From: Candidatus Bathyarchaeota archaeon | GTDB lineage: Archaea > Thermoproteota > Bathyarchaeia > Bathyarchaeales > Bathyarchaeaceae | Assembly: GCA_026967815.1 (NCBI GenBank) | Contig: JAPUUO010000001.1 | Location: 4,034 to 68,033, forward strand | DNA: 64,000 bases | Direction: 5' to 3' | Shown: one piece after another, positions 4,747 to 63,363 of the stretch | How positions within the stretch are numbered: the stretch's first letter is position 1 | Layout of the letters: each line of letters begins with the position of its first letter | The notes under the pieces: model-generated | Told to the model about the DNA's origin: nothing | Seen by the model: only the letters and a program-made list of their open reading frames with translations | The model's database searches: none | Translations under genes and position numbers: made by a program

Positions 4747-4747
4747 T

Positions 4748-5101: not shown

Positions 5102-5104
5102 ATC

Positions 5105-24320: not shown

Positions 24321-24331
24321 AATTGTATTTG

Positions 24332-24478: not shown

Positions 24479-24643
24479 TTACCTGTCAAGGCTGTACTTC
24501 CGCATGTCTATCGGTATCTCTTTACCGCATTTTTTACAAAACAGAAACACAATGCCCCGGCCTACAATATCTTCATATCTGCCGAGTAGTTTCGGCTTGC
24601 GTCCTAATTCCGCACATCTCGGACAATAAATATCACCCCTCAT
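24479..24643 (-). CDS. Zinc-ribbon micro-protein (54 aa)
   Basis: Hand-translated as MRGDIYCPRCAELGRKPKLLGRYEDIVGRGIVFLFCKKCGKEIPIDMRKYSLDR. ATGA overlap with the HNH stop. Confidence 0.55.
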   Translation of the reverse strand: MRGDIYCPRCAELGRKPKLLGRYEDIVGRGIVFLFCKKCGKEIPIDMRKYSLDR

Positions 24644-25281: not shown

Positions 25282-25302
25282 ATTTGTAATTCTTTCTGCG
25301 TG

Positions 25303-25371
25303 CAAATATAATGTGTTTTTGTAGATTGCGCAAGAAAAACTATAAAATAACTTTAGATTTTATTATCTTTG
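25303..25371. promoter_or_regulatory. Divergent late-promoter region
   Basis: Minus-strand -7 box TATATTTG (25310-25303) faces the HNH gene. Plus-strand -7 box TATCTTTG (25364-25371) faces terL. The -33 elements are weak. Confidence 0.5.
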
Positions 25372-31069: not shown

Positions 31070-34000
31070 TTGATTCCTGACATAATCAAAGTCGGATTCC
31101 CCGACTATGCTACTTTGACCCATGCCACGGTCAGCCTCGCCGATATGGGCGAGAAGTCCATAGCTACCCAAATCAAGATTGATGCCGCTGTCGCGCCCGA
31201 CTTTTCACACGACTGGGAGTTGCGCTTCCAGGGCGAACGTTACATCATGCCGTTGCGCAAACCCCAGGGGTCAAAGGATAATACTACCCTTAATGCGACA
31301 ATAGACCTGACGTTTCAGCATTGGGCCATATATCAGCTTAAACGTTGGATGTTCTTCTCGCTGCCCGATGTGGAGACGGGTTCGCCATCGCCCGACAAGT
31401 GGGTAGTGCCTTTGCAGCTCAATCTCCGCGACTTCTGCGCTGTGTTTGCCCGTGTACTGGAGTATTGGTATGGCGATACTATAACTTTGGATCTTAACCC
31501 TGCGTGGAAGTTCAAGGCGGAGCCGTCTACAGTCGACATCAGCTATTCATTCATATGGGATGTGCTGATTAAGCTCTATGAAATCTATGCCGTCCGTTGG
31601 TTTATCGAGCCTACAGGTGACGCGGACCACTACGTAATCCGCATCGGCTATCCGGCTGTAGAAGTGGAGCATATCTTTGAATACGGTTTTGAGGGCGGTC
31701 TGCTTAAGGTGGAGCGGCAGGTGCAGAGCGAGGAAATTCGCAACATGCTTCTTGGCCGCGGTGGTGACAAAAACCTCCCTTTGCGATATTTTAAGGACAA
31801 GGACCCCGGCAACCCAAAATTCAGTCCCGACCCTGACTGGGTGCAGGAACTCGCCAATATCTATTTTGACCGCCTCCGCGGAGCTACTTTCCGCTCCTAC
31901 GTGCAGGGGTGGAAGGCAGCGCATATATCGGAATATCCGGGCTACACGGCAGTAGGGGAGGACAATGCCTATGCGCCGTGGGCTTACCGCAAAGGCTACA
32001 CGGACGCGAAGTTTGACCCTGTGGAATATGTCAAGGACGATGAGAGCATACTCCTATATGGTCCCCTTCTCGGTGCCCTTGACGATAACGACGATTTTTA
32101 CCCTACGATACAGGGTACTGGCCTTGACATCGCGGTTGATGTGGAGCAGATTCTCAGCGACGATGTGCAGCAGTCGTCTGATGCCACTTCTGTAATATCC
32201 GATGTCAAGGGCGGCTCGCTGACACAGGTAATCTGGCATGGTACCACTGCCTCTTTCGTAATCCCCTGCGGCGACTTCATTGTACCCCCGGATTCGGTGG
32301 GCGTTCTTGTCACTGCGTCTACGGGCGCGTCGGCCTATTGGTGGGACTGGGTCAAACATGATAAAAAGGTGTTCCGTGAGCAGTTTGCCCCCAATGATTT
32401 TGAAATCCTGTCTACCGACATTGATGTCTTTGACTCTGCCGGCAATAAGCTCTCATCTTCTGTCGGGATTCCTCCGGGGGCATATACGTGCCGGGTGCGT
32501 TATGAGGTGATTAACAAGATGGGGCAGCACGTGGACCTCGTGACTACAATCTCATGTAACGGACTCAAACTGACTACTTCGGCTTCGTCCAAACAGTGGT
32601 CCAATACTTTCGACATCTGGGTAAAGAATATCTGGGATTCGGCTCCGTTGCCCTCGGAATCGGATGCGGCTTATGCCAGGCGCGTGTGGGAGCCTGTGCT
32701 CGGTGACAGAGAGGGCAGCGAGGCCAAGGTGCTGTTTACCACAGGCAATCTGGCTGTCAGCGATGACTACGAATTTACCATTGTGGAATATCCCGTTCCT
32801 GACAGTTCTAAATCATATACTTCACCTGATGGCGTGACCCATCAATCCCATTGGCGCATTCGCCTCGCGAAATCCGATGCCGACCTTGAATCTACAGGCG
32901 TGTATGTTCCCTCTACCAAAAGACAGGGTGCCCCGGGTGACCGTTTTGTGTTTATCGGCACGGAGATGACCCACATTCCTTATGTGGTAGATGCAGAGAG
33001 GAGGCTTGACGATTGGAAAACTGACAATCTCGCGGATTTTAAGGACATCCGTCCTACTTGGGTCGTGACGACTGACCGTGTGCGGCTTAACAACGAGGGG
33101 CGGCCTGACGCGCTTATCGGACAGCTTCGTATCGGTAATTCCATCCGTCTTGCCGACAGCCGTTTCATCCAGCCTGTAGGTGATAAGGCTTATGAGACTC
33201 TATATCTCCAGTCGTTGACTATAACTTACCGCGAGCCGAGCAGCGATGATGCGGCTCTCAACCCCGATGTAGAGATAGTTCTCGGCAACGATTATGCGGT
33301 CTCGGCCAATCCTGTATCTACCATGCAGGGCGATATTTCCGCGATACAGCAGCAGCTCGGCTCCATAAGTAATGTGGAGCAGATAGTCCGCGCCGTGGGC
33401 GATAGCCTGTATCTGCGCAAGGATGGCATATCCGACCGTTCGCTCTCGCCCACTCAATTCTTCTCGCTGCTGACTTCGGGCGATTTCCGCAACGGTGTTG
33501 TCGGCGGAGCGGGGTGGGGATTCTTCAAGGACGAGGACGGCAACTGGGTATTGGAGACGGACCGCATAAATGTCCGCAGTGATTTGCAGGTCAATAATCT
33601 TGTCATCAACCAGGTGTCGGCTCGCGGCGGCATGCAGATCGACACGGCGGCTTCGATAACCATTACCAAGGTGATTGAGACGCAGCTTGAATATGTCTGC
33701 TACTTCGACCAGAAAAACGGCTCTGTGGCTAATCTTTTCAAGGTCGGCGATGTGGCCATGTCTATGGTCTATGATGAAAATTGGGACACGGATGCAAACC
33801 TTGTAAAGGCTTACCGCCGCAGGGTGACGGCTGTTGCTCCCGACAGCATCTCTCTGACCAAGGAACGCGATGGAGACCTCCGTCCGTCGTGGTGGATTGA
33901 CAACGGGGTCAACGGCTCGGGAGTGCCATCGGTGGGTGATGTGGTGGTCCACTTCGGCAATTATAACGAGAAGGCTCGTCAGTATGTCAAGGTGCGTGAC

Positions 34001-37000
34001 GTGGTTGGTGGCGGTTATGAACGTTTTATTGACGGCCTTGACTCGGTAAATGCGTCCGGGGTGGAATACTTCTTTGTCGGACGACAGGCTGGTATGTACG
34101 GCGACCGTCCGCGCTGGTTTGTCGGCGATACTAACGGGTACATCGAGTGGGTCAACGGCCATCTTGACATCAAGGGTCGCATCAGCGTACTCTCCACTAT
34201 CGGCGGCAAGCCTGTGGGCGATTATGTCTCGGATGCTGCAAAGGCGGAGGCGGACAAGGCCAAGGCTGAGCTGGAGGCGAGCATCAAGGCTCTACAGGAG
34301 CAGGTTGACGGCGTGATAGAGAGTTTCAGCGGTTTCGGCGCACCCTCGCTGACCAACTTCCCGGCGGTGGAGTGGACCACGGATGCCGAACGCAAGGCTC
34401 ACGACCGCGACATATACACCGACCGCACTCCCTATGTCGATGATGCCACTACGCCTACTTCGGGACACTCCTGGAAGTGGTACTACAACACGCCTACCGA
34501 CTACGGATGGACCAAAATAGCCGATTCGGACGCTGTCAAGGCTTTGCAGATGGCGCAGATGTCTGTCCGCGATTCCGATGTCTACTTTATCTCGCACACT
34601 TCTGCCACATCCGCGCCTCCATTGCCTGTAATAGGTATCAACGGCGAGATTACCGATGCCAAAGGGTGGTCTACGTCGGCTCCTGCATGGCAGCAGGACA
34701 AGTATATCTGGCAGACTACCTACACGGTCAAGGGCGACGGCTCTGTGTCGTTCACCGACCCGACCTGCATATCGGGTCGCAACGGCAAAGGCATTGCGTC
34801 AATCACGGAGCAATACTACCTGTCGACATCGCGCGACAATCCCGTCGGAAGCTCTGTCGGTTGGACCGACCGTGACCACCGCGAGCAGTGGACTGTGGGC
34901 AAATACTGGTGGACGCGCTCGAAGATAACCTACACCGACGGCACGAGCGAATACATCGGGGAGGTCTGCGTCACAGGCGCGGACGGCGTGGACGGCACGT
35001 CCGTGCTGGCAAGGTATTCGTCTGACCTTGCGAACTGGCATCCCACGATGCTCGCCACGGACATATACATGCAGACATCCTCAGACGGAGGCAAAACATG
35101 GTCGCCAGCTGTGAGGATGACAGGTAGCGACTACACCGAAAACCTCATGCTAAAGACGGAGGAGCGCATAGAACTGACATACTCCACCGACGGCGACCAC
35201 TGGAGCGGATGGCCCGACCGAACCATCCACATGGAGCAGGGGCAGACCTACACCATATCGGGGCGCACCAACGCCGAGGCATTCACAAATGTGCATACAG
35301 CCTCCATCGGGCTTTCAAGATGCGTCCTGTGGATATGCTCAAACCCGCAGTCGCCGCAGGGCGAGGTAAACCAGGTTGTGTCGGGTACTGACATGGCAAC
35401 CGACGGCTCCACCGGCCACACGTTCGTATGGACCCGACCCACGGGAGACTACTACCTGCGCACGAACTTCTACTCGGCTGGTACATGGTGGGTTGAAAAG
35501 GTCAAGGTGGAGAAAGGGCGCAACCCCTCGCCCGTGTGGACTCCCAACAGCTCGGAGATGGTGGGCGTGGACGGTCGCTGGCAGAAAATGCAGTGGGCTA
35601 AGAACAACTCGGAGACCGCAGCACCCACAAGCGGATGGCAGGACACGCCTTTGTCCGCCCTCCCCGGCGAATACATATGGACGCGCAGCGGATGGGTCAT
35701 ACCTCCGGCTACGGAGCCGTCATCCTACGGTGACGCGGTGCGCATCACGGGCGATGCAGGAAGCAACGGAAGCGATGTCTACCGCCTTGACCTTGACAAC
35801 GAGATGGCGGCGGTGGCGGTACGCCCCGATGGAGGTCTTGACAGCAATTCCGTGCTCCCTACAGCTAATGCCAGCGTCTATAAGGGAGCGACAAAGCTGA
35901 CAAGCGGCGTTGTTTTCTCCATTCCTCAGTATGACGGTGTCGCAGGGGTTTCAATCTCTCCCGAGGGCAAGGTGCAGGTACTCGGAACTGTCATGTCCAA
36001 TGTGGCAAGGATAACCGTACAGGCCGTTGTTGACGGGCTGACGCTCACAACCATAATGACCGTCTACAAGGTCAAGCCGGGACATGACGGCGCATCTGCC
36101 AAGGTTGTGGTGGTCAATGCCGACTCGCAGGTGTTCTCCTATGCCGACGATTTCTCGGGCAGCCCCTCGCCGTCTGCCATACGCATCACGGCCTCGGTGC
36201 AGGGCATCGCGTCTCCGGCTTACAGCTGGAGCTACAAGTTCCCCGGCGATGCGGATTTCACCGCTTATGGCGCAGAGACAGGCGCGGTGCTCACCCTGTC
36301 GCCCACATGGCAGCAGTGGGGCAACCGCCGCTCTGTGACATGGCGGTGCACTGTCGACGGGGTGCATGACGAGGTGACGGTGGCAAAGGTCAGCAGTGGA
36401 AAGAACGGCACGGACGGCACGGATGCCTACACCGTGCTGCTGACGAACGAATCGCACACTTTCGCAGGCGACGAGTCCGCAGCACTCGCTTCTTCCGCCG
36501 AATGCTCGGTGGTAGCATACAAGGGCGCGGTGCAGACCGCCGTGACAATAGGCACCGTCACGGGCGCACCCCAGGGCATGTCGGTACAGACCGCCAACAA
36601 CGGCACGACCTCCGCCAAAATCACCGTCAGCGTCACGCCGTCGCTCAAACAACGGCAGGGTGTGCTGAAAATCCCCGTGAGCGTTGACGGCAAATCGTTC
36701 ACTAAAGACTTCTCTTGGTCGCTCGCACTCAAAGGCGAGGCTGTCACGGTAGACAAGGGCAAATCGTCCGTCACATATCAGACATCCACCAACTACACCA
36801 CGCCCCCCACAGGCCAATGGCTGACGGCTGTGCCGTCTGTGCCCAACGGACATTATCTGTGGACGCGCACAATCGTTGCATACACCGACGGCAATTCCAC
36901 TACGGCCTACAGTGTGGCACGGCAGGGTGTTAATGGCACAGACGGCACTAATGGCACAAACGGAGACAGCTACACCAACAATATACTCCGCAACACCGAC

Positions 37001-39724
37001 TTCCGCGAGGGCGGCCGTCATTGGTGGTTCATGTCAAACGGCGTGACGGCGGTTGATACTTCAAGGGTGTTCCAGGGACGTGTGTCGCTGAGGTCATCGC
37101 AGAGCGGAGCGACGACTTCGAAGCCGTGCGGATGGATAGCCGGCAGCGACAACGAGTTCATCCCTGCCAAAAAGGGCGATGTCATAACCCTGAGCTGCTG
37201 GGTGTGCTGCGATAATCCCTCTGCCATTGACGGAGACGTAGTAGCGGAGATATATTGGCGCGACGCAGCCAAGCAGCGAATAGCCACGTCGGTCTATAAC
37301 CACGCTTCTTTCATGCCGTCCGGGCCGGGGACTTGGACGCTCCGCTCTCTGACGAGCGATGTTGCTCCCGAGGGTACTGCGTATGCGGAACTGCGCTGCC
37401 AGCTGACGCAAAACGGCACGGTGTGGTTCAACGGCATCAAGGCGGAGTACGGCGCGAACACCGCTCCTGTATGGACTCCTTTTGCCGAGGGTACGGCTCT
37501 GGACGGCCAGTCTGTGACATACGCCAAATCGTCAACGGCATCCCAGCCGTCCGACTCGGCTTTCACGGCCACGAGCATCGGCCAGCTCGGACTCGCCCCG
37601 GGTGAATACATGTGGAGCAAGACGGAGGTAAGATACTCCGACGGCACGGTGACAAAGAGCTACATGGTGGCGCGTGTCGGCACGGACGGCACGGGCGGAT
37701 TGCCGGGTGCTCCGGGCAAGGATGGCAAGACCACATACGTCCATTTCGCCTACGCAAATTCGGCTGACGGCGTAAAGGACTTTTCCACAACGCCTTTCGC
37801 AGGGGCGAAATACCTCGGCACATGCTCGGATTTCAACCAGCCCGACCCGACCACTCCGTCAAGCTACCAGTGGAGCGAATACAAGGGCTCGGACGCCGTG
37901 ATATACGAAATCATACCGAGCGTAGACAAAATCACGCGCTCTTTCACGGGCGAGCTGTCAGCTTCATCGGTAAGATGCTCGGTCTACAAGACCGTAGGCG
38001 GCACACGGACACTGACCGTAGAGAAATATCTTAGATACACGCGCTACCCCGACGGCGCGACAGGTGCGATGCCGCATCTGGGCATATCCGTAAACACCGT
38101 TGACATTCTTGACGACACTACCGAAGTAGTGTTCGAGCTTTACAACAGCTCCACGGAGCTTAACGAAGCAAACCTGCTTGACCGCGAGAGGGTGCTTGTG
38201 CTGACGGATGCCGCGGGGCTTGAAATCGGAGGCACGAACCTGCTGCGCAACTCGGCTGCTACAATAGAGCGGACGTACACCGATTACGGCGACCATTTCT
38301 TCCCATTGCCAGACCGCACGATACACATGGAGCAAGGGAAAGTCTACACAATATCCGCGCAGACCAACGCGGAGTTCATAGACCCATCCAAGCACAGCAA
38401 CGTCAACGGCGGTGTCCTCGGCTACTGGGTGTCGCTGTGGATAGTCTCGCCCTCTCCGCAGCCAACGGACGGCAGCGCGGTCAATATACTTGTGACAGGC
38501 GAGGACATGGCTTCGGACGGCAGCAAGGGACATGTGTTCAAGTGGCTCAAACCTACAGGCGACTATGTGCTTCGAGTCAACTTCTACGCTCCCGGCACAT
38601 GGTGGGTCAAGAAGATAATGATTGAGCGCGGCAATGTGGCCTCTGCATGGTCTCCGAGTCCCGAGGACATGGACTATCTGACCCGCGCCCTGCGCGAGAG
38701 CATCACCATGGACGGCGGTCTGCTGCTGGCCACTCTCATCAAGCTGGGCTACACAGACCCCGGCGGTCTGTACAAGGTGATGGCAGGTGTCAACGGCTCG
38801 TACACCTCTCCATCCGACATAGCTTTCTGGTCGGGAGGCGAGATGGTCGACAAACTGCCTCCGCAGTCCGTTGCCTCGGTGCAGGCCGCTTCGGAACTTG
38901 CGGCACAGGCAGAGGGAGCTACCTATGTGATGCGTATGAACGGCACCGGCTACATGGCCGACGGTGTGCTGCGCTTTGAAAAAAATCATATAGGGGTGGG
39001 CGACTCAGTGATACTCGACAACTCAGGGCTGCATCTGATGGACGGCGACAGCGAAAGACTTCGCATCGCCAACACCCCGATTGACGAAAAGTTCCTCAAT
39101 GCGCAGTTAGGCAAAACTGAAATTTCCGCAGGACCCTTCTCTGGTAGGCTGGCTTTCGTGCGAAGGTATTCGCCCCACGACAACGGCACGTTTTATCCAC
39201 GTTCAGGCATGACCGTTGAACTATGGAGCGGCACTCTTACGAAGGACTCGTTCGTGTCATTGTCCGTATCGTATTTTGACAACCTTGTCCGCGTAGGGAG
39301 CGATGTTGTCAATCCGTCTTGGTCCGCCCGTCCATACATTGAGGTGACAAGGGGGAACAAGTACACACACTTTAAAAGCAGCAGCAGCACAGCAGCCAGC
39401 TTCACAGTCCCCGAGGATGATACATATTACATATTTCTGCGCATAGACCAGGACACATATACAGGCGGCTCGCCATCGGATCATAATTCAATAGATGTGG
39501 AGTACAGCTCAATCAAACTTGCAGGCTATTCCTCGCCTCCTACCTCGGTGGGACTCACCCTCGGAAATAACGGATTCGCAGGGATATTTGACAAAATCGC
39601 CTTGATAGCCAACCCCGACGGCATAACCATGATGGCGGGGAACTACGGATTGAGACTGACACCAGCCAGAGGCATACAATACAACAAGACCGGTCTCGAC
39701 ACCGGGTGGACAAACCTCGTATAG
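31070..39724 (+). CDS. Giant tail fibre / host-specificity protein (2884 aa, Tal-like N-terminus)
   Basis: TTG start (the frame opens at 31064 and there is no upstream ATG). Contains repeated YxW(T/S)(R/K)..Y(T/S)DG motifs, short collagen-like GxxGxxG runs, and three internal N(L/I)LRN..VW(T/S)P modules. Confidence 0.8.
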   Translation: MIPDIIKVGFPDYATLTHATVSLADMGEKSIATQIKIDAAVAPDFSHDWELRFQGERYIMPLRKPQGSKDNTTLNATIDLTFQHWAIYQLKRWMFFSLPDVETGSPSPDKWVVPLQLNLRDFCAVFARVLEYWYGDTITLDLNPAWKFKAEPSTVDISYSFIWDVLIKLYEIYAVRWFIEPTGDADHYVIRIGYPAVEVEHIFEYGFEGGLLKVERQVQSEEIRNMLLGRGGDKNLPLRYFKDKDPGNPKFSPDPDWVQELANIYFDRLRGATFRSYVQGWKAAHISEYPGYTAVGEDNAYAPWAYRKGYTDAKFDPVEYVKDDESILLYGPLLGALDDNDDFYPTIQGTGLDIAVDVEQILSDDVQQSSDATSVISDVKGGSLTQVIWHGTTASFVIPCGDFIVPPDSVGVLVTASTGASAYWWDWVKHDKKVFREQFAPNDFEILSTDIDVFDSAGNKLSSSVGIPPGAYTCRVRYEVINKMGQHVDLVTTISCNGLKLTTSASSKQWSNTFDIWVKNIWDSAPLPSESDAAYARRVWEPVLGDREGSEAKVLFTTGNLAVSDDYEFTIVEYPVPDSSKSYTSPDGVTHQSHWRIRLAKSDADLESTGVYVPSTKRQGAPGDRFVFIGTEMTHIPYVVDAERRLDDWKTDNLADFKDIRPTWVVTTDRVRLNNEGRPDALIGQLRIGNSIRLADSRFIQPVGDKAYETLYLQSLTITYREPSSDDAALNPDVEIVLGNDYAVSANPVSTMQGDISAIQQQLGSISNVEQIVRAVGDSLYLRKDGISDRSLSPTQFFSLLTSGDFRNGVVGGAGWGFFKDEDGNWVLETDRINVRSDLQVNNLVINQVSARGGMQIDTAASITITKVIETQLEYVCYFDQKNGSVANLFKVGDVAMSMVYDENWDTDANLVKAYRRRVTAVAPDSISLTKERDGDLRPSWWIDNGVNGSGVPSVGDVVVHFGNYNEKARQYVKVRDVVGGGYERFIDGLDSVNASGVEYFFVGRQAGMYGDRPRWFVGDTNGYIEWVNGHLDIKGRISVLSTIGGKPVGDYVSDAAKAEADKAKAELEASIKALQEQVDGVIESFSGFGAPSLTNFPAVEWTTDAERKAHDRDIYTDRTPYVDDATTPTSGHSWKWYYNTPTDYGWTKIADSDAVKALQMAQMSVRDSDVYFISHTSATSAPPLPVIGINGEITDAKGWSTSAPAWQQDKYIWQTTYTVKGDGSVSFTDPTCISGRNGKGIASITEQYYLSTSRDNPVGSSVGWTDRDHREQWTVGKYWWTRSKITYTDGTSEYIGEVCVTGADGVDGTSVLARYSSDLANWHPTMLATDIYMQTSSDGGKTWSPAVRMTGSDYTENLMLKTEERIELTYSTDGDHWSGWPDRTIHMEQGQTYTISGRTNAEAFTNVHTASIGLSRCVLWICSNPQSPQGEVNQVVSGTDMATDGSTGHTFVWTRPTGDYYLRTNFYSAGTWWVEKVKVEKGRNPSPVWTPNSSEMVGVDGRWQKMQWAKNNSETAAPTSGWQDTPLSALPGEYIWTRSGWVIPPATEPSSYGDAVRITGDAGSNGSDVYRLDLDNEMAAVAVRPDGGLDSNSVLPTANASVYKGATKLTSGVVFSIPQYDGVAGVSISPEGKVQVLGTVMSNVARITVQAVVDGLTLTTIMTVYKVKPGHDGASAKVVVVNADSQVFSYADDFSGSPSPSAIRITASVQGIASPAYSWSYKFPGDADFTAYGAETGAVLTLSPTWQQWGNRRSVTWRCTVDGVHDEVTVAKVSSGKNGTDGTDAYTVLLTNESHTFAGDESAALASSAECSVVAYKGAVQTAVTIGTVTGAPQGMSVQTANNGTTSAKITVSVTPSLKQRQGVLKIPVSVDGKSFTKDFSWSLALKGEAVTVDKGKSSVTYQTSTNYTTPPTGQWLTAVPSVPNGHYLWTRTIVAYTDGNSTTAYSVARQGVNGTDGTNGTNGDSYTNNILRNTDFREGGRHWWFMSNGVTAVDTSRVFQGRVSLRSSQSGATTSKPCGWIAGSDNEFIPAKKGDVITLSCWVCCDNPSAIDGDVVAEIYWRDAAKQRIATSVYNHASFMPSGPGTWTLRSLTSDVAPEGTAYAELRCQLTQNGTVWFNGIKAEYGANTAPVWTPFAEGTALDGQSVTYAKSSTASQPSDSAFTATSIGQLGLAPGEYMWSKTEVRYSDGTVTKSYMVARVGTDGTGGLPGAPGKDGKTTYVHFAYANSADGVKDFSTTPFAGAKYLGTCSDFNQPDPTTPSSYQWSEYKGSDAVIYEIIPSVDKITRSFTGELSASSVRCSVYKTVGGTRTLTVEKYLRYTRYPDGATGAMPHLGISVNTVDILDDTTEVVFELYNSSTELNEANLLDRERVLVLTDAAGLEIGGTNLLRNSAATIERTYTDYGDHFFPLPDRTIHMEQGKVYTISAQTNAEFIDPSKHSNVNGGVLGYWVSLWIVSPSPQPTDGSAVNILVTGEDMASDGSKGHVFKWLKPTGDYVLRVNFYAPGTWWVKKIMIERGNVASAWSPSPEDMDYLTRALRESITMDGGLLLATLIKLGYTDPGGLYKVMAGVNGSYTSPSDIAFWSGGEMVDKLPPQSVASVQAASELAAQAEGATYVMRMNGTGYMADGVLRFEKNHIGVGDSVILDNSGLHLMDGDSERLRIANTPIDEKFLNAQLGKTEISAGPFSGRLAFVRRYSPHDNGTFYPRSGMTVELWSGTLTKDSFVSLSVSYFDNLVRVGSDVVNPSWSARPYIEVTRGNKYTHFKSSSSTAASFTVPEDDTYYIFLRIDQDTYTGGSPSDHNSIDVEYSSIKLAGYSSPPTSVGLTLGNNGFAGIFDKIALIANPDGITMMAGNYGLRLTPARGIQYNKTGLDTGWTNLV

Positions 39725-48892: not shown

Positions 48893-50398
48893 CTATAAAA
48901 TCACTTTAGGTTTTCGCAAACAAAAGCCATAGCCGACCTGCAATCTCTGCTTGAAGCACCCTTTCTGCGCGAGCATAGCCGACAATTCAGGTCGGGCGTG
49001 CTGTTTACTCCCCTCGGCTTCGGCAAACGCCTTATACTCGTCATACAGCTCAGCAAGACTGCGCCAGCAATCCTTGTCGTATTCCTTGACCGCCTCGTAG
49101 TCGTTCTCAGCCCACCATCGGCGCATATTGTTGCTCCCTGCCATGATTATCTCCTGCGACTTCTTCATGTCCTCGCCCATTACTATGTCGCCTTTGTTTT
49201 TGGCAAAGATGCGGTAGCCCTCCACAATCCAATGAAAGATATACATAAGGGCTTCGGGGCGCGTCAGTTTGTAGGTAAGACTCGTGTCCCTGTCCTCGCC
49301 CGTAAACGCCCGTGTGGTCGTATGAACAACCAATCGTCTGCGCTGACCTCCGTAGCTGTCATCGTCAGTCTCGGGCATAGTGTTGGCACAACACAAAAGC
49401 GGCGGCGCAATAACCTTTACGGGCTTTTTGTCGTATGGTACACGACCCTGGAACTCGCCTCCGCTCGCAAACCTCTTGAAGTCACCGCCCGAAAGCTCTT
49501 TGCCGTCCATATCGTCTATGAAGTTGGCTACTTTGTTGGCGAGTGCCGCGATATTCACGTTGCGGTCGCTGTCCTTGAACAGCTGACGGAACGAAAAGCA
49601 CGAAAAATACTCCTTGCCGAACACCGAGGCTATCACATTCGACACAACGGACTTACCGTTACTGCCGGGTCCCAAGAGGAATAGACAATACTCCATCTTA
49701 AACGCCTGACGGTCAGAAATTAAAGAGCCGCACCACTGCTGAAAAACGCTCCGAGCGTCCTTGTTCGGGACAATCTCGGCGATTTTCTCCTCCCACAGCT
49801 TGCAGGGATTGCCGAAAGTGCCGTATTTCTCGGCACACTCGCGATACAGCTCGTCCTTGTCCTTGTATTCAAGGTCAAGCACGATAGCAGGGCATTGCTC
49901 CACACTCGGCTTCACCGCCTTGCGCTTCTCAACGTCATACACAAGGTTTCTGAACGCCACATAACGCCTATTCGGACGATACAGATACTTGTCGCTGCTC
50001 GAAATCGTGTCAAGGCAGCTCATGGCGATAGCCTTTGCAGGGTACTCGTCATTGTACTTCTCGCCCAAATCAAGCTCGATAAAGGCTCTTTTGAGCAATT
50101 CCTTTAAGAATATCTCTCTGTCCTCCACACGCACGAAACACACGCCGTTAAACGCATATATCGCGCTCTTTGAGCCGTCCGAGAGGAAGCGTTTCATCTT
50201 GTCCTCGCAAATCAGGTTGCGGACAATCGCCCTCAGTCGGTCAACACGCCCCTGATACACGTTCTTGTCGTATTTGCCGAGACCTCTCAGCTTGCCTCCA
50301 TCCTTGCCCTTTGAGTACAGCCGCTTGTACTCCGCCTCCATCGCAGGACAGAGCCAATCCAACAAATGCTGGTACAAAAATTCACTTACAAGTGCCAT
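48893..50398 (-). CDS. P4/D5-type primase-helicase (SF3 helicase domain)
   Basis: 501 aa. Walker A is LLGPGSNGKSVV. The size and layout match phage/plasmid primase P4-family C-terminal domain proteins. Confidence 0.7.
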   Translation of the reverse strand: MALVSEFLYQHLLDWLCPAMEAEYKRLYSKGKDGGKLRGLGKYDKNVYQGRVDRLRAIVRNLICEDKMKRFLSDGSKSAIYAFNGVCFVRVEDREIFLKELLKRAFIELDLGEKYNDEYPAKAIAMSCLDTISSSDKYLYRPNRRYVAFRNLVYDVEKRKAVKPSVEQCPAIVLDLEYKDKDELYRECAEKYGTFGNPCKLWEEKIAEIVPNKDARSVFQQWCGSLISDRQAFKMEYCLFLLGPGSNGKSVVSNVIASVFGKEYFSCFSFRQLFKDSDRNVNIAALANKVANFIDDMDGKELSGGDFKRFASGGEFQGRVPYDKKPVKVIAPPLLCCANTMPETDDDSYGGQRRRLVVHTTTRAFTGEDRDTSLTYKLTRPEALMYIFHWIVEGYRIFAKNKGDIVMGEDMKKSQEIIMAGSNNMRRWWAENDYEAVKEYDKDCWRSLAELYDEYKAFAEAEGSKQHARPELSAMLAQKGCFKQRLQVGYGFCLRKPKVIL

Positions 50399-55168: not shown

Positions 55169-55975
55169 CTATAGTGTTAAATCCAATTTAAGTTGCGCCT
55201 GAGCGTCCTTTACACGCTTCACGGCAATGTCGTAATACTCCTGCATCAGCTCTATGCTGATGCCTCGGCGGTTGGCATTCACGCAAGCGACAAGCGTAGA
55301 GCCACTACCCATCGTACAGTCAAGCACGCAATCGCCCTCGTTGGTGTAGGCTTTAATCAGATACTCCAATAGCGTGACTGGCTTCTGTGTAGGATGATTG
55401 ACTTTCTCCTTTGAGTTTGATACCACCGATGGTATAGTAATCACATTGCCCTGCAATTTGCGGTCGGCGTCAAACGTATGCCAATCTCTTGGAGCGTACT
55501 CAGTGGCAAACGACACTTCCTGCGTAGGCTTCTTGTTTGTGCGCCACTGCTTGCTGTTGCCTTTCTGCGCTTGACGCACCCTATCGGATTTGCGCTCGGT
55601 ATATTGAGGGTTGAATGTGTATCTGCCGTTGGCAAACACTACAATATCCTCGCTGTATTTCAGATGCCGTATTCGGGCGTTGCCGATATTGCTCGGCTTA
55701 TGCTTTACCCACGTCAGTTTCTCCTTGAAAGCGTTATAATTGCTCGCTATCAATGCCGATGTGAACGGCTCACTCGCAAACAGCACGATAGCACCCTTGC
55801 ACACCCGATTAAGTTGTTCCCATAGTGGAGCAAACGGAATTACCACGTCCCATTTGCAGGAGGTTGTTCCATAGGGCAAATCGCAGATTACAGCGTCTAT
55901 GCTGTTATCAGCAAGCGTAGGCAGAATTTCAAGGCAGTCGCCGCGCAGGAGGGTGATGTTGTCTGTCTTATTCAT
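55169..55975 (-). CDS. Orphan beta-class DNA methyltransferase (N4-C or N6-A)
   Basis: From ATG 55975: MNKTDNITLLRGDCLEILPTL..SIDAVICDLPYG..HPTQKPVTLLEYLIKAYTNEGDCVLDCTMGSGST. Confidence 0.8.
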   Translation of the reverse strand: MNKTDNITLLRGDCLEILPTLADNSIDAVICDLPYGTTSCKWDVVIPFAPLWEQLNRVCKGAIVLFASEPFTSALIASNYNAFKEKLTWVKHKPSNIGNARIRHLKYSEDIVVFANGRYTFNPQYTERKSDRVRQAQKGNSKQWRTNKKPTQEVSFATEYAPRDWHTFDADRKLQGNVITIPSVVSNSKEKVNHPTQKPVTLLEYLIKAYTNEGDCVLDCTMGSGSTLVACVNANRRGISIELMQEYYDIAVKRVKDAQAQLKLDLTL

Positions 55976-55978
55976 ATC

Positions 55979-56037
55979 GGCTCTTTTGGCTCTTGGTTCA
56001 TACCGCAAAGTTAAAGCGACATTGCGGATTATCCAAA
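55979..56037 (-). promoter_or_regulatory. Canonical early-left promoter followed by AGAGCC doublet (copy 6)
   Basis: Minus strand reads TTTG (56037-56034) - N20 - TAACTTTG (56013-56006) - 12 nt - AGAGCC AAA AGAGCC (55993-55979) GAT ATG. Confidence 0.6.
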
Positions 56038-56086
56038 TAAACCTATAATGTAGGTTTAAGTTTCGAGAGAGCCGAAAAAGACGTGA

Positions 56087-56572
56087 TTTTGACCCCTATT
56101 TTGAGCAAAATCGGCTGAATCTCCTACACAACTTCATGCCCTCTTTTCTCCCTTTCTCTTTCTCCCTCAGCGAATTAGGCGGTCAAGCTATATAATGTAG
56201 TGTACCTATTTTCTATTTAACTTTTTTCTCTTTCTCTCGTACTATATATTTTTATAGAATTATTTTTTTCGTTTTTCAGTTCATTTACTACATTAAAGAG
56301 ATAAATATATAATAATCAATATTTTATCCGTGTAGTTGCTGGTTCAGTCCGCTGCATTGAGGTGCATAAGTGTTAAAAATATATAAAAGTTTGATTTTGC
56401 ACAGAAACTGAAATTTTGAGCAAAAAAAATTTTTCTGGGTCGCACCCACCCGTTTCAGTCCTGTCGACTCCACACCCCCGGCACCCCTTTGCGGGGTCAA
56501 ATACTCCACGAAATCAACGTGTTACACATGATAAACGGTCGCAACTGTGCTGTAACTCTCAATTTTGACCCC
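56087..56572. repeat. Three dispersed GGGGTCAAA(W) sites and a 13-nt direct repeat ATTTTGAGCAAAA
   Basis: TTTTGACCCC 56087-56096 and TTGACCCC 56565-56572 (both as reverse complement); GGGGTCAA 56493-56500; ATTTTGAGCAAAA at 56098-56110 and 56413-56425. Confidence 0.7.
56139..56238 (+). repeat. Pure polypyrimidine tracts flanking onset of a very AT-rich block
   Basis: A 31-nt C/T-only run lies at 56139-56169 and an 18-nt C/T-only run at 56221-56238. AT-rich sequence continues to about 56420. Confidence 0.75.
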
Positions 56573-56905
56573 TATTTTTACCCTTATTTTGAATGATTCT
56601 AAATAAACAACCGCAAATAATTGAAATTCAACACATTACATTTGGATTCCTCCGCAAATATGCATCATCTCCACCACATCACCAACAATTAAACAAACTT
56701 TAACACGCTCAATAATCGGCTTTCTGTCTTTTCGCGTGTCGCACCGGTTTGTGATCGCCTTCAATTTTTGCCATTGGAGTGTTAAACGCCGTATGCGTGT
56801 AGGCTGTGCGCTTTAGGTGCGATTCTGTGCGAAGCCTCTGTTTCAAGTGTTAAAATCAAGGCCATATTTTGAGAGTTAACCCGCTGAAAATAAACCGCTT
56901 AAAAG

Positions 56906-56936
56906 TTTGACATGTCATAAATTTTCCGTACCTTTG
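56906..56936 (+). promoter_or_regulatory. Canonical rightward promoter
   Basis: TTTG 56906-56909 - N19 - TACCTTTG 56929-56936. Confidence 0.6.
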
Positions 56937-56940
56937 TAGT

Positions 56941-57286
56941 GTAAGGAATGACCAAGCGGAACGCCTTACAATAGGACATTGAAAGAAAAAAGCCCTCAAA
57001 GGCTGCAACCGATGAGGGCGAAAAGGTGTAAAGGCCGACCGATAAAACGGCTATAACCTTTAAAACCCGTTGATATATGAGGCTTGAAATCTCATGGAAG
57101 TTAGGCAAATGGCGGTTTAAAATCATAATCAACCGCTAATGCCTTCGGGGGTTTAAAAATGCTACCAAAGGATAGCGACCCCCGAAAAGGGTTTTAAATC
57201 ACTCGCAAAGATAGCACAAACTTTGCAAAGATGCAACAGGCAAACGAAAAACCGCCCCGTTTGTCTGTCACAGATGAAGGGCGGTT
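56941..57286 (+). ncRNA. Long highly structured leader / ncRNA candidate (~350 nt)
   Basis: There is no ORF. At least seven hairpins were hand-folded, e.g. GTAAGG/CCTTAC 56941-56969, GCCCTCA/TGAGGGC 56992-57019, TTCGGGGGT/ACCCCCGAA 57144-57187 and AACCGCCC/GGGCGGTT 57250-57286. GGTTTAAAA and CAAAG(A/G)TA motifs recur. Confidence 0.4.
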
Positions 57287-57356
57287 AATTCAAATTAAGT
57301 TCCTGCAAAGGTACGACAATTCAAATTAAGTTTCACTATCAAATTCAAATTAAGTT
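57287..57356 (+). repeat. Three perfect 15-bp direct repeats AATTCAAATTAAGTT abutting a start codon
   Basis: Copies at 57287-57301, 57318-57332 and 57342-57356, with the ATG at 57357. Confidence 0.9.
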
Positions 57357-57995
57357 ATGACAAACAAAATTAACACCGGTGTTAATTCCACCATGAACGC
57401 AAACGAAATCAACGCCCGCACAAAATCCATCAACGGCATAATGAATCAGGCTAACCGCTTAATGTCGGTATGCAACATGGTTCGGAACTTCAAACGTGCC
57501 AATGCTATCCGTGAAATCGCTTTCCGCTATTACGACAACATTCGCGCTTGTGTCGGACGGTTCAACTACAACGACGATAGTGAGTATAACAAAGAGTATT
57601 CACGCGCCCAATACATGAACGCAAAAGAAACAAAAGCCCCCGAATTTTCGGAACTGTCACACACTGCAACTTCCGCAATTTGCCCGCTTGATTTCGATAC
57701 GACTTTCGACGCATACAATTACGCAATGGCGCACCGCCTTGATGAAAGCCCGTTAGCCGTTGCAATACCCACCGACGCCCACGGCACGGACTACGGTCGC
57801 AGTCTCGCACTAAACGGCGTTAAGTTGTTCGCCGTATGGTCTGACGAACTGGAGGAAACCGCAAACGGCTATGTCTATACGACCGAGGCCGGAGCGCGTG
57901 AAGCCATGGCACAAGTCGAAGATAACGATAAAGAGGCCGGAGTATATGAGCCTAACTACTGGAAAGTGTCCGATATGACAAAATATTTCGCATGA
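57357..57995 (+). CDS. Hypothetical protein
   Basis: 212-aa ORF, first gene of the rightward block. Confidence 0.55.
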   Translation: MTNKINTGVNSTMNANEINARTKSINGIMNQANRLMSVCNMVRNFKRANAIREIAFRYYDNIRACVGRFNYNDDSEYNKEYSRAQYMNAKETKAPEFSELSHTATSAICPLDFDTTFDAYNYAMAHRLDESPLAVAIPTDAHGTDYGRSLALNGVKLFAVWSDELEETANGYVYTTEAGAREAMAQVEDNDKEAGVYEPNYWKVSDMTKYFA

Positions 57996-58111
57996 AACAC
58001 ACCCTAAAAGCCACGGCGGCGATTGTCGGCATGCTTGCCGCCGGGCTTCTCTTCTGGTACATCGTAATTGAATTTATGTGGATGTGCTACTATGCCGGAA
58101 TCAGAATGTAA
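57992..58111 (+). CDS. Membrane micro-protein (39 aa)
   Basis: Hand-translated as MKHTLKATAAIVGMLAAGLLFWYIVIEFMWMCYYAGIRM. ATGA overlap upstream. Confidence 0.4.
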   Translation: MKHTLKATAAIVGMLAAGLLFWYIVIEFMWMCYYAGIRM

Positions 58112-60722: not shown

Positions 60723-61517
60723 ATGGCACGATACATATACGCGAGGTGCAGCACCATTGAGCAGGACTTTATGCAACAGCAGAACTGCGTAAACACCTAT
60801 CTTACGCAACACGGCGTCAACCCCGACAAGGACATAGCAAAAACTGTGGTCGAGAAAATATCCGGCACGGTACGGCATACCGAGCGCAAACTTGCCGGGC
60901 TTCTCGCCAAATGCAAGCAGGACGATATAATCTATATCTCCGAGCTATCCCGACTTGGCCGTAACATGTCAGATTTGTTCGCCATCGTCACCGAATCGTG
61001 CGAGAAAGGTGTTACAATCGTGCAGTGCAAAGACGGCAGCACGATAGAGAACGAAAGCATAGGCGGAAAGGCACTTTTATTTGCCCTCTCGCTCGCCGCA
61101 GAGATTGAAGTGCAGAACATACGCCAGCGTACACAAATGGGCCTGGATGCACGTAAAAAGCTATTGGAAGAGCAGGGCAGCTTCATCAGCAAGTCGGGCA
61201 ATATATGTACCAAATTTGGCCGTCCCAAGCGCGTCGAGGGCGAACCTTATGACCTGTCGGGCCTTGAGGCCGCAGCGGCAGCCAAAACCGACGCGGCAAT
61301 ACGTTGGCGCGAGAAGTCGCAGGCCGTCCGATTTGTCCGCCGCAAACGCAAAGAGGGGTGGGGCATAGTCCAGATAACCGAGGAACTTGGCAAGATGTAC
61401 GACGAGTTTGCAACAGCAGAAGGGAGCATAAACCCCTACGCCACGCCCTCCGGCTGCAAGCCTCAAAAAGGCACCGTGTCGCGTTGGTGCCGTGAGATGA
61501 ACCCGATTGCTATTTAA
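60723..61517 (+). CDS. Small serine recombinase (resolvase/invertase family)
   Basis: MARYIYARCSTIEQD contains the catalytic Ser context. Also has IYISELSRLGRN and AEIEVQNIRQRTQMGL, plus a C-terminal extension. Confidence 0.75.
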   Translation: MARYIYARCSTIEQDFMQQQNCVNTYLTQHGVNPDKDIAKTVVEKISGTVRHTERKLAGLLAKCKQDDIIYISELSRLGRNMSDLFAIVTESCEKGVTIVQCKDGSTIENESIGGKALLFALSLAAEIEVQNIRQRTQMGLDARKKLLEEQGSFISKSGNICTKFGRPKRVEGEPYDLSGLEAAAAAKTDAAIRWREKSQAVRFVRRKRKEGWGIVQITEELGKMYDEFATAEGSINPYATPSGCKPQKGTVSRWCREMNPIAI

Positions 61518-61791: not shown

Positions 61792-63027
61792 TCATTTCGC
61801 CCACTCCGGTATCGGCATATCATCGTCGGGTGTCTCGTTAAGCGAGAAGTCTATAATCTTGCGGATTGCCAAATCAGCCTGAAAGCGCATTACTTTCATG
61901 TAGTTGAATATCGGCCGAGAGTTTGCATCCTTGATACTTTGTCCTATGGCATATTCAAGAACGTAAAGCGGTATCCCAAGCTGCTGACCGAACTGCACGA
62001 AAGTTTTTCGGGCGGAGTAAAACATCAGCTTTTTCTCAAAGCCCAAATCTTCGCCGATTTTATTCAGCCCTTTGGTCACAAAAGAGCGGAACTGCTCATA
62101 TTGGCTGTAATTGTAGCCGAATTCAAGCCTCCCATCTCTGGTGATGTATTTGTCGATGATTACTCGTGCTTCGGGCTGTATCGTCAAGGAAACGCCTTTC
62201 TCGCCCGTCTTTTTTGCCGCCGTCTTTTTGCGCACAAAGTTGATGGTATCACCGTCCAGCTTCGCATCCATAAGGTCGGTAAGGTTGATTCCGGCGAAGT
62301 AGAACGAGAGCATGAACAAATCCCTCGCGATGGTATGCCGACGCTCTGACACGCCTTTAAATTCCGCTTCACGCAACTTTCCCAACTCGTCTTTGCTTAT
62401 CCAAATCTCGCGAATGTTCTTCATCGGCATACGGTAGTTCGCGAATGGCGGTATTTTATATTCAACCGCGCCCGTCTTTACGGCGTGATTCAACAACGCC
62501 TTAAGATGTGTCATGCGGATGTTGATTGTAGTGTCAGACTGCCCTTTTTTTCGTAGGTGGTTTTCAAACAATTCAAGAGCGATATACGAGAAATCTTTCA
62601 ACCGCACGTTGTCGCCGAAACAGTCAAATATGGCCTTTACGGTATATCCCATGTTTTGAGCATAGGACTTCTGATTGTTTTCTTTAAGTCGGGCTATATA
62701 TTTTTCTGCAAGTGTCGTGAAACTTTCTTTGTCGGGCGTGGCGTCGCTTTCAAACCACTCTCTTATCTTGGATGCTGGCATGTTTTTAGGCGGGTCAAGT
62801 TCATCGAGCTTTGTTTGATAGGCACACAGCATCTGCGATAACTTGGCGTTAATCATTGCAGCTTGCGGATGCCGCACTACCTGGCCGCCGTTCCATTGCT
62901 TTTTTTCGACGGAGTATTGAGTAGCGATATAGGTTACACTTGTTCCATTGGTGATTTTAAATCGAATGGCAAATGTTCCGTCTTGCTTGGGACGGGAAGT
63001 GACGATACAAAGTGAGATTGTAGCCAT
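61792..63027 (-). CDS. int: Tyrosine integrase (Bacteroidota phage-integrase type)
   Basis: 411 aa. Has an N-terminal arm-binding-like domain (MATISLCIVTSRPKQDGTFAIRFKITNG), a SAM-like core and a C-terminal catalytic region ..YSARKTFVQFGQQLGIPLYVLEYAIGQS. Confidence 0.8.
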   Translation of the reverse strand: MATISLCIVTSRPKQDGTFAIRFKITNGTSVTYIATQYSVEKKQWNGGQVVRHPQAAMINAKLSQMLCAYQTKLDELDPPKNMPASKIREWFESDATPDKESFTTLAEKYIARLKENNQKSYAQNMGYTVKAIFDCFGDNVRLKDFSYIALELFENHLRKKGQSDTTINIRMTHLKALLNHAVKTGAVEYKIPPFANYRMPMKNIREIWISKDELGKLREAEFKGVSERRHTIARDLFMLSFYFAGINLTDLMDAKLDGDTINFVRKKTAAKKTGEKGVSLTIQPEARVIIDKYITRDGRLEFGYNYSQYEQFRSFVTKGLNKIGEDLGFEKKLMFYSARKTFVQFGQQLGIPLYVLEYAIGQSIKDANSRPIFNYMKVMRFQADLAIRKIIDFSLNETPDDDMPIPEWAK

Positions 63028-63209: not shown

Positions 63210-63240
63210 TGAGCCGCAAGTCAGGCTCGAACTGACGACC
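63210..63240 (-). other. tRNA 3' fragment (T-arm + acceptor 3' strand): att core candidate
   Basis: Minus strand reads GGTCGTCAG-TTCGAGC-CTGAC-TTGCGGC-TCA. No matching 5' acceptor strand (GCCGCAA), D-arm or anticodon arm lies upstream. Confidence 0.6.
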
Positions 63241-63363
63241 TTTTCGTTACGAATGAAAAATTTAATACGTGTAAATTTCTAATTAACTGTAAATTATATC
63301 GTGCTAAAATGTGTTAAGTCAAAATTCAGTCAAAAAAAAGTGGCGTTTTGCCGGTTTTGCTGT

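Follow-up and report, generated by a model that had tools for sequence, protein, structure and literature searches.

A conserved non-coding junction with a covarying leader RNA and a candidate replication origin in a putative temperate Bacteroidales phage

A conserved gene-free junction between divergent operons

A 64,000-nt stretch of contig JAPUUO010000001.1 (assembly GCA_026967815.1), hereafter called the window and used for all coordinates, contains a gap of about 1.35 kb without a credible gene. The gap (55976-57356) separates two divergent operons, the left one beginning with a methylase gene and the right one with a gene that starts at ATG 57357. Its left half carries a conserved DNA element that is a candidate replication origin. 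Its right half is the leader of the rightward promoter and carries an RNA element with pseudoknot topology, followed by direct repeats. The promoters, short open reading frames (ORFs) and pyrimidine tracts of the gap, together with its left neighbour, are the following.

ATG 55975, minus strand: start of the methylase gene (Pfam N6_N4_Mtase), left neighbour of the gap
56037-56006, minus strand: promoter P_L, TTTG-N20-TAACTTTG, found by regex, heading the methylase-to-primase operon
56139-56168, plus strand: polypyrimidine tract 1, 30 nt, the longest in the window
56221-56238, plus strand: polypyrimidine tract 2, 18 nt, tied second in the window
56324-56509, minus strand: ORF of 61 aa, frame not conserved
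56899-57132, minus strand: ORF of 77 aa, frame not conserved
56906-56936, plus strand: promoter P_R, TTTG-N19-TACCTTTG, found by regex

These two ORFs are the only ones of at least 60 aa inside the gap. Conservation of their frames was sought in 8 relatives and none was found; translated similarity spreads over all six frames, the frame changes from relative to relative, and A/T homopolymer runs vary by 1 nt among the copies. Without the two short ORFs the gap measures 1348-1381 nt, 3.5 times the next largest in the window (381 nt). The original prediction, made from the sequence of the window, had described a gene-free 1.35-kb gap between divergent operons, and this description is borne out. 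The same prediction had named a conserved small protein gene as evidence against itself; such a gene was looked for in the 8 relatives and none was found. Hidden small genes were therefore rejected, as no frame is preserved.

The composition of the gap also agrees largely with what had been predicted. The AT-rich block at about 56190-56420 has a GC content of 25.5%, and 56229-56328 (18% GC) is the least stable 100 bp of the 64-kb window (+4.2 standard deviations). The GC-rich island at 56438-56500 reaches 66.7% GC, the 13-nt direct repeat ATTTTGAGCAAAA is present at 56098 and 56413, and the three GGGGTCAA/TTGACCCC sites lie at 56089, 56493 and 56565, versus 8 such sites in the remaining 62.6 kb. 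The 18-nt polypyrimidine tract is as described, whereas the first tract is 30 nt long and not 31, base 56169 being an A. Among the related loci, which are numbered with an L, both tracts are kept in L017, L007, L010, L008 and L032, as in the window, and are swapped for another sub-module in L006, L013 and L016. ARAGORN called no tRNA or tmRNA in the gap region.

The two promoters were located with a regex scan for the Bacteroidetes promoter pattern (-33 TTTG, -7 TAnnTTTG, spacing 19-21 nt). The leftward and rightward promoters had been predicted at exactly these positions; their type is that of Bacteroidetes and not of E. coli sigma-70, and a sigma-70 scan of the window detected neither. P_L and P_R are two of only seven full matches in 64 kb, and their elements and spacing are those of Bacteroidetes primary-sigma promoters. 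P_L, with a leader of ~25 nt to ATG 55975, is kept in relatives. P_R is found at +570 to +578 from an anchor in the conserved core (56351-56367, see below) in 6 of 7 relatives, the seventh carrying a TTTA variant. An inverton, that is, a promoter flipped by the neighbouring serine recombinase, was considered and rejected: an inverted repeat of 10-13 nt surrounds the -7 box in 2 of 7 relatives only, and an inverted copy of the promoter segment was found in no relative.

Relatives were sought in IMG/VR, metagenomes, one metagenome-assembled genome (MAG) and Logan assemblies with the core pattern, the right-hand gene and the primase-helicase as queries. The resolvase returned no related loci when used as a query, and a promoter-based DNA pattern gave no additional relatives. 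Every relative with the junction covered has divergent operons separated by an ORF-free stretch that measures 1.0-1.4 kb, and as much as 1.8 kb in L010. Its parts follow the same order in at least 14 related phage loci: P_L, T-run/ACCC motifs, an AT-/T-rich block, the core, a variable spacer, P_R, the leader RNA, direct repeats and the first gene. The core shows 75-86% nucleotide identity among relatives whose flanking genes are mosaic, and it is still recognisable where the helicase is only 50-57% identical. Across relatives it ends in an A7-8T4-5 run and a C-rich island (GGGT..CAC ... ACCCCC..CACCCCTTTG). The gap is a genuine control region, non-coding and conserved in evolution.

The original prediction had also noted that no CI/Cro-type repressor is recognisable in the window, outside which part of the phage lies. 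This is borne out by a Pfam search of the 100 window ORFs of at least 45 aa, which returned no HTH_3, XRE or Peptidase_S24 family. In the all-ORF scan 13 of 38 families fell outside the matches listed; 12 of these were recovered protein by protein, and none is CI/Cro-like. Many small window proteins are without any match. The only hits resembling a helix-turn-helix (HTH) domain in the window belong to two proteins that lie ~55 kb from the gap.

870-1313: HTH-like protein of 148 aa, several HTH hits, all below curated cut-offs
1313-2164: HTH-like protein of 284 aa, HTH_Crp_2 and DUF7833

Nothing found ties these proteins to the gap, which leaves the earlier suggestion of an IstA-like HTH protein as immunity factor without a link to it. 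The suggestion of a lysis-lysogeny switch of the CI/Cro kind did not hold either, with no repressor gene and no recognisable operator triplet, and a lambda-type CI/Cro immunity region was rejected, as the gap has no conserved ORF and the 100 ORFs include no HTH_3, XRE or S24 protein. In L005, a relative without the core, a divergently oriented 189-aa gene (4540-5109, minus strand) with its own leftward -7 box lies between the methylase and P_R. No Pfam or PHROG match was found for this gene, which could be a regulator in that lineage.

Leader RNA, direct repeats and a candidate antisense RNA

The right half of the gap (56937-57356) is the P_R leader of 415 nt. It contains the following elements.

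56960-57235, minus strand: structured leader cassette of ~290 nt, present only in the window, L006 and L029
57236-57286, plus strand: two-helix leader RNA with pseudoknot topology, from covariation and an unbiased helix search
57287-57301, 57318-57332 and 57342-57356, plus strand: three perfect direct repeats AATTCAAATTAAGTT, from a repeat search
57238-57313, minus strand: candidate antisense RNA unit, composed of a -7 box, a tail, the S':S hairpin and a U-run

In the window, the leader RNA consists of helix X:X' (57236-57246 with 57258-57268) and helix S:S' (57250-57257 with 57279-57286), joined by an A-rich loop L1 (57247-57249) and by loop L3 (57269-57278). L3 holds a conserved TCACAGAT-like motif, which in the window straddles the X'/L3 boundary (57267-57274). 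Towards its end, the P_R leader of every relative shows the helix strands in the order X, S, X', S'. An unbiased search paired the 32 nt preceding S with the loop, took the best helix and compared it with shuffles. In 12 of 14 loci this helix was X:X', located at the loop's 5' edge, and p values for single loci were mostly 0.0003-0.07. Across the loci, X:X' falls into eight sequence families, namely CAGGCAAACG/CGTTTGTCTG, GGACAAAC/GTTTGTCC, AGGAATGACC/GGTCATTCCT, GATGAACG/CGTTCATC, GAGAGATAG/CTATCTCTC, GGGATAGGAC/GTCCTATCTT, CGGAATTATACG/CGTATAATTTCG and a weak AGGGAG/CTCCCT.

MAFFT left the helices out of register, and pairs were counted with our own scripts on a hand alignment fitted to the structure. 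On this structure-fitted alignment, 100% of the positions pair in every sequence, compared with 50-60% when partners are swapped. G.U pairs account for 13 of 230 and would be A.C mismatches on the minus strand; since they are legal only on the plus strand, the plus-strand RNA is taken as the folded species. The helices measure 8-12 bp (X:X') and 5-9 bp (S:S'), and the loops 2-10 nt (L1), 0-2 nt (L2) and 9-14 nt (L3). Helix order, loop lengths and covariation all fit an H-type pseudoknot, in which both helices would form simultaneously. We are confident, on the strength of this covariation, that the structure is very probably real.

No second copy of the element of like strength was found in the window. 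The RNA element is new, in that no Rfam 15 family matches it. The covariance search that had been proposed for the gap was run and gave no relevant family in the gap or in relatives: Rfam 15 cmscan at E values up to 10 returned two chance snoRNA hits only (E 3-6) for 55500-58000, and at E values up to 1 it returned only tRNAs for 41 kb of relatives, four leaders included. The genes that follow the leader module are unrelated to one another and encode a 212-aa protein, a 62-aa membrane protein or a 78-aa protein.

The last of the three AATTCAAATTAAGTT copies abuts the start codon at 57357. Relatives carry one to three direct repeats after S', likewise ending at the start codon. Copies within one phage match each other perfectly or almost so, and the sequence changes from phage to phage, even between close ones such as the window and L029; L029 carries three copies of ATAGTTAAATTA, and L022 two of AAAGTTATAAAATCA. 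Repeat unit 1 matches the unit at the start codon exactly or nearly so in 12 of 14 loci, among them L017 and L036, whose copies differ at one position. This pattern of sequences indicates that the direct repeats undergo concerted evolution.

Read leftward, the same segment has the parts expected of a small antisense RNA. Its -7 box TACCTTTG (57313-57306, minus strand) would place a start near 57299, and a U-run follows the S':S hairpin at 57249-57238. All 14 loci have a leftward TAnnTTTG box between S' and the ATG; in the window, boxes of this kind have a frequency of roughly one per 2.7 kb on each strand. In all 14, too, the S':S hairpin read on the minus strand has a T-rich tail. The predicted product, from ~57299 to ~57240, would combine a free 5' tail with a terminator hairpin (free energy -19 kcal/mol, z -2.56). 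Because the tail is antisense to repeat unit 1 and the units are alike, it would also be complementary to the copies at the start codon. Complementarity to the start region, varying between phages, was found in 12 of 14 loci. Several points count against such an RNA: no leftward box is preceded by a -33 TTTG with the canonical spacing of 19-21 nt, only one repeat unit is found in L010 and in L013, and the minus-strand U-run is at the same time the A-rich loop 1 of the plus-strand pseudoknot, so that the leftward "terminator" may be a by-product of this loop. A leftward antisense RNA of ~60 nt is therefore put forward tentatively, with somewhat more doubt than belief.

The original prediction had raised RNA-based control as a possibility. 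The covarying pseudoknot, the concertedly evolving repeats and the leftward box and terminator in the leader (57236-57356) give it partial support; the features that the prediction itself had listed do not.

Two leftward elements bound the cassette that precedes the pseudoknot: a terminator-like hairpin, H1 (56992-57019, minus strand, with U6 after it), and a -7 box TATCTTTG (57213-57206). H1 has a folding z-score of -4.33, and its stems vary among the window, L006 and L029 yet still pair. The cassette (56960-57235) is a candidate for a second leftward non-coding RNA of ~215 nt. A conserved ORF of ~60 aa with two predicted transmembrane helices comes after the pseudoknot in L001 (5858-6046) and is also found in the leaders of L010 and L017, with a strong GC hairpin ATAGGGGGCGG...CCGCCCCCTAT after it. 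The window, L006 and L029 lack this ORF and have, upstream of the pseudoknot, the 290-nt non-coding cassette in its stead. Where the P_R transcript of the window begins (56943-56975), it keeps GTAAGGAATGACC, a sequence that forms the X strand of the pseudoknot in L007 and L010; in the window this sequence has no pseudoknot partner and pairs locally (GUAAGG/CCUUAC). This segment looks like a relic of the layout that preceded insertion of the cassette. In L007 and L017, the first repeat unit, between pseudoknot and first gene, holds an ATG with a 4-codon mini-ORF (ATG CTA CAA AGG TAG), which overlaps the GCTACAAAGGTAGC hairpin and the leftward -7 box.

A candidate replication origin and the rival explanations

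The left half of the gap contains the conserved core and its surrounding motifs. They are listed here with the primase-helicase gene that accompanies the core.

56086-56112, plus strand: ATTTTGACCCCT and ATTTTGAGCAAAA motifs, the first TT[TG]ACCC and ATTTTGA repeat copies, on the upstream side of P_L
56189-56388, no strand: AT-rich block, candidate DNA-unwinding element, with its minimum at 56229-56328
56296-56500, no strand: conserved core, sequence blocks shared with relatives
56699 (minus strand), 56780 (plus strand) and 56848 (plus strand): TGTTAAA sites in the variable spacer (region 56699-56854)
48896-50398, minus strand: primase-helicase of 501 aa (DUF5906/D5-like SF3), from Pfam, AlphaFold2 (AF2) and Foldseek

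Within the core, the blocks follow one another as AGAGATAAATATATAATAATCA, GTGTAGTTGC..GTTCAGTCCGCTGCATTGAGGTGCAT, TGTTAAA (56371), 13 variable nt, an A8T5 run (56422-56434) and a C-rich island GGGTCGCACC...ACCCCCGGCACCCCTTTG (56437-56492); the anchor region has two TGCAT motifs 10 nt apart. Further copies of the TT[TG]ACCC/ATTTTGA repeats lie at 56413, 56562, 56574, 56586 and 56866, and TT[TG]ACCC shows a top-strand bias in several relatives. TGTAG/CTACA motifs occur in inverted orientation around and within the AT-rich block (56196-56200, plus; 56288-56292, minus; 56331-56335, plus), which also holds the inverted repeat TATATATTTTTA/TAAAAATATATA (56243-56254 and 56374-56385). In most relatives TGTAG lies to the left of the block and CTACA inside it or to its right, the extra right-hand TGTAG of the window pointing in the "wrong" direction; L036 has two ATGTAG to the left and five CTACAT to the right. 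TGTTAAA is present two to four times per relative, mostly near offsets +20, ~+305, ~+480 and ~+530 from the anchor, and is almost absent in flanking genes. One copy always lies just upstream of P_R, in the window at 56848, ~58 nt upstream of the -33 element.

RNAalifold found almost no covariation in the core on either strand, the GC island (56400-56505) showed no excess RNA folding over shuffles (z -0.58 and +0.08 for the two strands), and no consensus promoter points into the core. The core is read as a protein-binding DNA element, because its blocks are conserved without pairing, folding is not in excess and no promoter leads into it. On the RNAalifold and shuffle-folding results, the core is unlikely to contain a structured RNA, and this reading was discarded.

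The probable trans-acting partner of the core is the primase-helicase. When 45 window proteins were compared with relatives, it alone was always present and highly conserved (82-98%). Helicase and core occur together in 11 of 11 relatives with the junction covered, nearly all the intervening genes being different, and the distance between them ranges from 1.5 to 7 kb as accessory genes are gained or lost. In L034 and L036 (57% and 50% helicase identity) an equivalent 1.2-kb gap has the helicase as its immediate neighbour gene, and no gap was found on the downstream side of the helicase. Dulem virus 40 is syntenic, with a different helicase (29% identity) and no core. The AF2 model of the window helicase has a pLDDT of 90, and its top Foldseek match in the PDB is the SaPI5 primase-helicase 7OLA (E 3.7e-16, TM 0.65/0.74, 483 aligned columns), followed by the D5-type enzymes of African swine fever virus and mpox. 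The C-terminus contains helices at 448-462 and 469-478 and a beta-hairpin at 482-495, which we read from predicted secondary structure as a winged helix. Helicase homologues in Parabacteroides phages carry the annotation "P4-specific DNA primase".

Because the core always travels with a helicase that resembles the self-loading type of SaPI5, we favour reading the left half of the gap (~56040-56900) as a replication origin. A number of observations weigh against this. TGTTAAA is scattered over 500 bp instead of clustering at the AT-rich block, TT[TG]ACCC is missing in three relatives, the enrichment of TGTAG/CTACA in the window is only 2.8-fold, and none of TGTAG/CTACA, TGCAT and TGTTAAA is confidently an iteron. 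In the window the helicase gene lies 5.6 kb from the core, and the linkage of the two could stem in part from shared ancestry of the sampled contigs. Cumulative GC skew has no turn at the gap and is uninformative as an origin marker here; the AT-skew minimum at 56851 merely mirrors the switch of gene strand. The origin that had been predicted gains indirect support from the co-occurrence of core and helicase in 11 of 11 relatives, from the gap that abuts the helicase gene in distant relatives and from the SaPI5-like fold. We consider the origin a nearly even call that falls slightly on the side of doubt.

The main rival to the origin takes the core as an operator or enhancer array, through which an unrecognised phage regulator would control P_L and P_R, perhaps by looping, so that the gap would be the lysis-lysogeny switch proper. 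The two to four TGTTAAA sites per relative, mostly at conserved offsets and with one just upstream of the P_R -33 element, would suit such an array, as would the placement of the region between divergent promoters, and the many small proteins of unknown function could supply the regulator. However, no DNA-binding protein co-varies with the sites, the helicase alone always accompanying the core; the promoter-proximal TGTTAAA changes orientation and distance among relatives; and both the extreme AT-rich block and the adjacency of the helicase in distant relatives would go unexplained. We regard this array as rather unlikely. Alternatively, positions 56400-56500 could produce a small non-coding RNA from a non-consensus promoter, ending at an ACCCC-UUUGC-GGGGU terminator or at the GGGUGCGACCC hairpin with U8. 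The 3' arm of the ACCCC...GGGGT hairpin has G-to-A changes compatible with wobble pairing when read on the minus strand, L022 carries a CCUC/GAGG variant, and most relatives have a T-rich stretch after the hairpin on the plus strand. This RNA is improbable all the same, as no suitably placed TAnnTTTG box lies on either strand, RNAalifold gives 2 compensatory pairs of ~30 per strand, the folding energy is no better than that of shuffles, Rfam gives no match, and what is conserved are sequence blocks and not pairing.

In the leader, S:S' might be a mere leftward intrinsic terminator that shields P_R from antisense read-through, with X:X' and the repeats having no function as RNA. The minus-strand T-rich tail after the hairpin in 14 of 14 loci fits this account, the repeats could be direct-repeat DNA sites for a protein, and the N-terminal part of the first gene varies among relatives. 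Yet X lies beyond the U-run, outside the terminated leftward RNA, and X:X' covaries in eight families nonetheless; the 13 G.U pairs among 230 are legal on the plus strand alone; and with unrelated first genes, no single protein tracks the repeat sequence. There is little to recommend the terminator as a full explanation. Least credible is a gap that hides small protein genes, for example a micro-repressor, or that consists of decayed coding sequence. ORFs of 61 and 77 aa do exist in the gap, and a real 62-aa two-helix membrane ORF is present in leaders of relatives, but no frame is preserved in 8 relatives, homopolymer runs carry 1-nt indels, the 62-aa ORF has no window counterpart, and the ORF-free state is kept in at least 14 loci. 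We give this account next to no weight.

Phage context, proposed control scheme and known systems

We read the window as the greater part of a temperate phage whose host is an uncultured member of the Bacteroidales, because its promoters and its integrase are of Bacteroidetes type and one relative was found inside the MAG "uncultured Bacteroidales bacterium UMGS440". Related contigs of 71-77 kb imply several kb of phage beyond the window. Two recombinase genes are annotated to the right of the gap.

60723-61514, plus strand: serine resolvase, from window annotation
61792-63024, minus strand: tyrosine integrase with Bacteroidetes-type arm-binding domains, from window annotation

The integrase gene adjoins a partial tRNA 3' end (63215-63260, minus strand) with a T-arm GTCAG-TTCGAGC-CTGAC and an acceptor strand, at which ARAGORN calls no tRNA. 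This fragment is probably the core of the attachment (att) site: two related IMG/VR provirus contigs stop at ~63255 in window coordinates, and the fragment and these contig ends together place the site at ~63.2 kb and not in the 1.35-kb gap. The gap as attP or integration site was thus rejected, the att-like tRNA end and contig ends lying ~6 kb away. As att holds only a tRNA fragment, the window may derive from an excised or circular phage assembly. Complete tRNA genes in L034 (12448-12520) and L017 (8343-8415), both Rfam tRNA matches of 68-71 bits, may be integration targets or phage-borne tRNAs.

Searches of GenBank phages with blastn and tblastn found no annotated relative of the gap region or of the 212-aa gene; the sole GenBank phage match is Dulem virus 40, which shares synteny and has a different junction. 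PHROGs gave no match for any protein of the rightward operon. Elsewhere in the window, a second divergent pair of full-consensus Bacteroidetes promoters (17298-17267, minus, and 17386-17417, plus) sits in a 250-nt AT-rich gap that is the second least stable DNA of the window. Three ORFs resemble HNH/NUMOD homing endonucleases (11-163, 111-791 and 24640-25305); one of them adjoins a tRNA-Met gene (24331-24403, minus strand) and lies just upstream of a 588-aa ORF (25441-27207), which may encode the large terminase. The structural part holds two very large ORFs of 1879 and 2884 aa (10925-16564, minus, and 31070-39724, plus).

Temperate Bacteroidales prophages are abundant in the human gut. For temperate Bacteroidales phages, to our knowledge, no control region of either lysis-lysogeny or replication has yet been dissected. 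We propose that the gap could act as a control hub of four layers, namely divergent promoters, a DNA origin, the leader pseudoknot and an antisense RNA, a scheme for which we see the arguments as evenly balanced. P_L would fire the leftward early operon with the replication genes, and P_R the rightward operon toward the resolvase gene and the convergent integrase gene. The origin would comprise the AT-rich block, TGTAG, TGCAT, TGTTAAA, the A8T5 run and the C-rich island, where the SaPI-Rep-like helicase would bind and melt the DNA, and some origin sites, which extend to ~45-60 nt upstream of the P_R start point, may also couple replication or regulator binding to this promoter. The last 120 nt of the P_R leader would fold into the pseudoknot (X:X', S:S'), followed by unstructured A/U-rich repeats up to the start codon. 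The leftward box in the repeats, with the S hairpin as terminator on the opposite strand, would yield the ~60-nt antisense RNA, whose 5' tail would pair with every repeat copy, including the ribosome landing site, and repress translation of the first rightward gene or genes. The repeat sequence would then serve as a phage-specific address. Origin activity, antisense transcription and this regulatory outcome are predictions drawn from sequence. The most far-reaching version, in which the rightward operon, and possibly immunity, would run without a protein repressor, through a new pseudoknot class and a ~60-nt antisense RNA with the repeats as immunity address beside a SaPI-like origin, is speculative and in our judgment unlikely.

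A candidate origin with a SaPI-Rep-like helicase would be useful for building Bacteroides vectors, and the structured, strongly covarying leader RNA absent from Rfam is a concrete testable part. Specificity through repeats and antisense RNA, if true, could explain heteroimmunity among mosaic gut phages.

Of the known systems, the Staphylococcus aureus pathogenicity islands (SaPIs) are closest to the left half. SaPI Reps are self-loading initiators, whose C-terminal winged helix binds iterons of 5-6 nt that flank an AT-rich origin and point in opposite directions on its two sides (PMC9371898). The fold of the window helicase best matches SaPI5 PriRep, initiator and cis element are inherited together, short inverted motifs flank the AT-rich block of the candidate origin, and the element abuts the helicase gene in distant relatives. 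The initiator-helicase fold of SaPI/P4-type origins is thus found here, as judged by AF2 and Foldseek, with the winged helix taken from secondary structure. In contrast, and this tells against the likeness, the SaPI origin lies immediately downstream of rep and the element here lies upstream, in the divergent promoter region; it is distant from the helicase gene in the window (5.6 kb) and adjacent but upstream in L034 and L036. Sequence identity to PriRep5 is only 14%, and binding and melting are predicted here. By analogy, helicase and core may work as a Rep/ori module like that of SaPI (or P4).

In the immunity of the satellite phage P4, the CI RNA pairs with seqA and seqC (PMC4825925). P4, which has the alpha primase-helicase with ori/crr, and the window share an SF3-type primase-helicase and a leader with repeats complementary to a small RNA, and in neither is a protein repressor recognisable beside the leader. 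Unlike the RNA proposed here, which would come from the opposite strand and block translation, CI RNA is processed from the leader's own strand and causes premature termination, and the two systems have no sequence similarity. The iterons of the P4 ori are TGTTCACC. In P1 and P7, the seed of the short c4 RNA can pair with sites repeated at the ribosome-binding region of its target; this RNA is co-transcribed with the target, processed by RNase P and directed at icd/ant. As would be the case here, its specificity varies among related phages through matched changes of RNA and target. The c4 system differs in its co-transcription, RNase P processing and icd/ant target logic, whereas the unit described here is known from sequence.

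The operator of T4 gene 32 has the same order of parts as our leader, with a 5' pseudoknot, an unstructured run of A/U-rich repeats and the start codon, and its regulator is the gene's own product. Autoregulation of this style by one protein is unlikely here, because the module precedes unrelated first genes. The switch of coliphages 186 and P2 has face-to-face promoters; P_R likewise faces a leftward promoter box, 76-369 bp apart, and transcriptional interference would be possible, although the leftward unit here encodes no repressor and a terminator follows immediately. With lambda, the gap shares divergent early promoters in a non-coding control region near the integration module, and it differs from the CI/Cro arrangement in that the junction has no repressor or cro gene and no tripartite operators, and Pfam finds no HTH_3 or S24 protein in the window. 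The leader stands apart from P4 CI, P1/P7 c4 and T4 gene 32 in strand, processing and context. The RNA element of the gap fits no described family.

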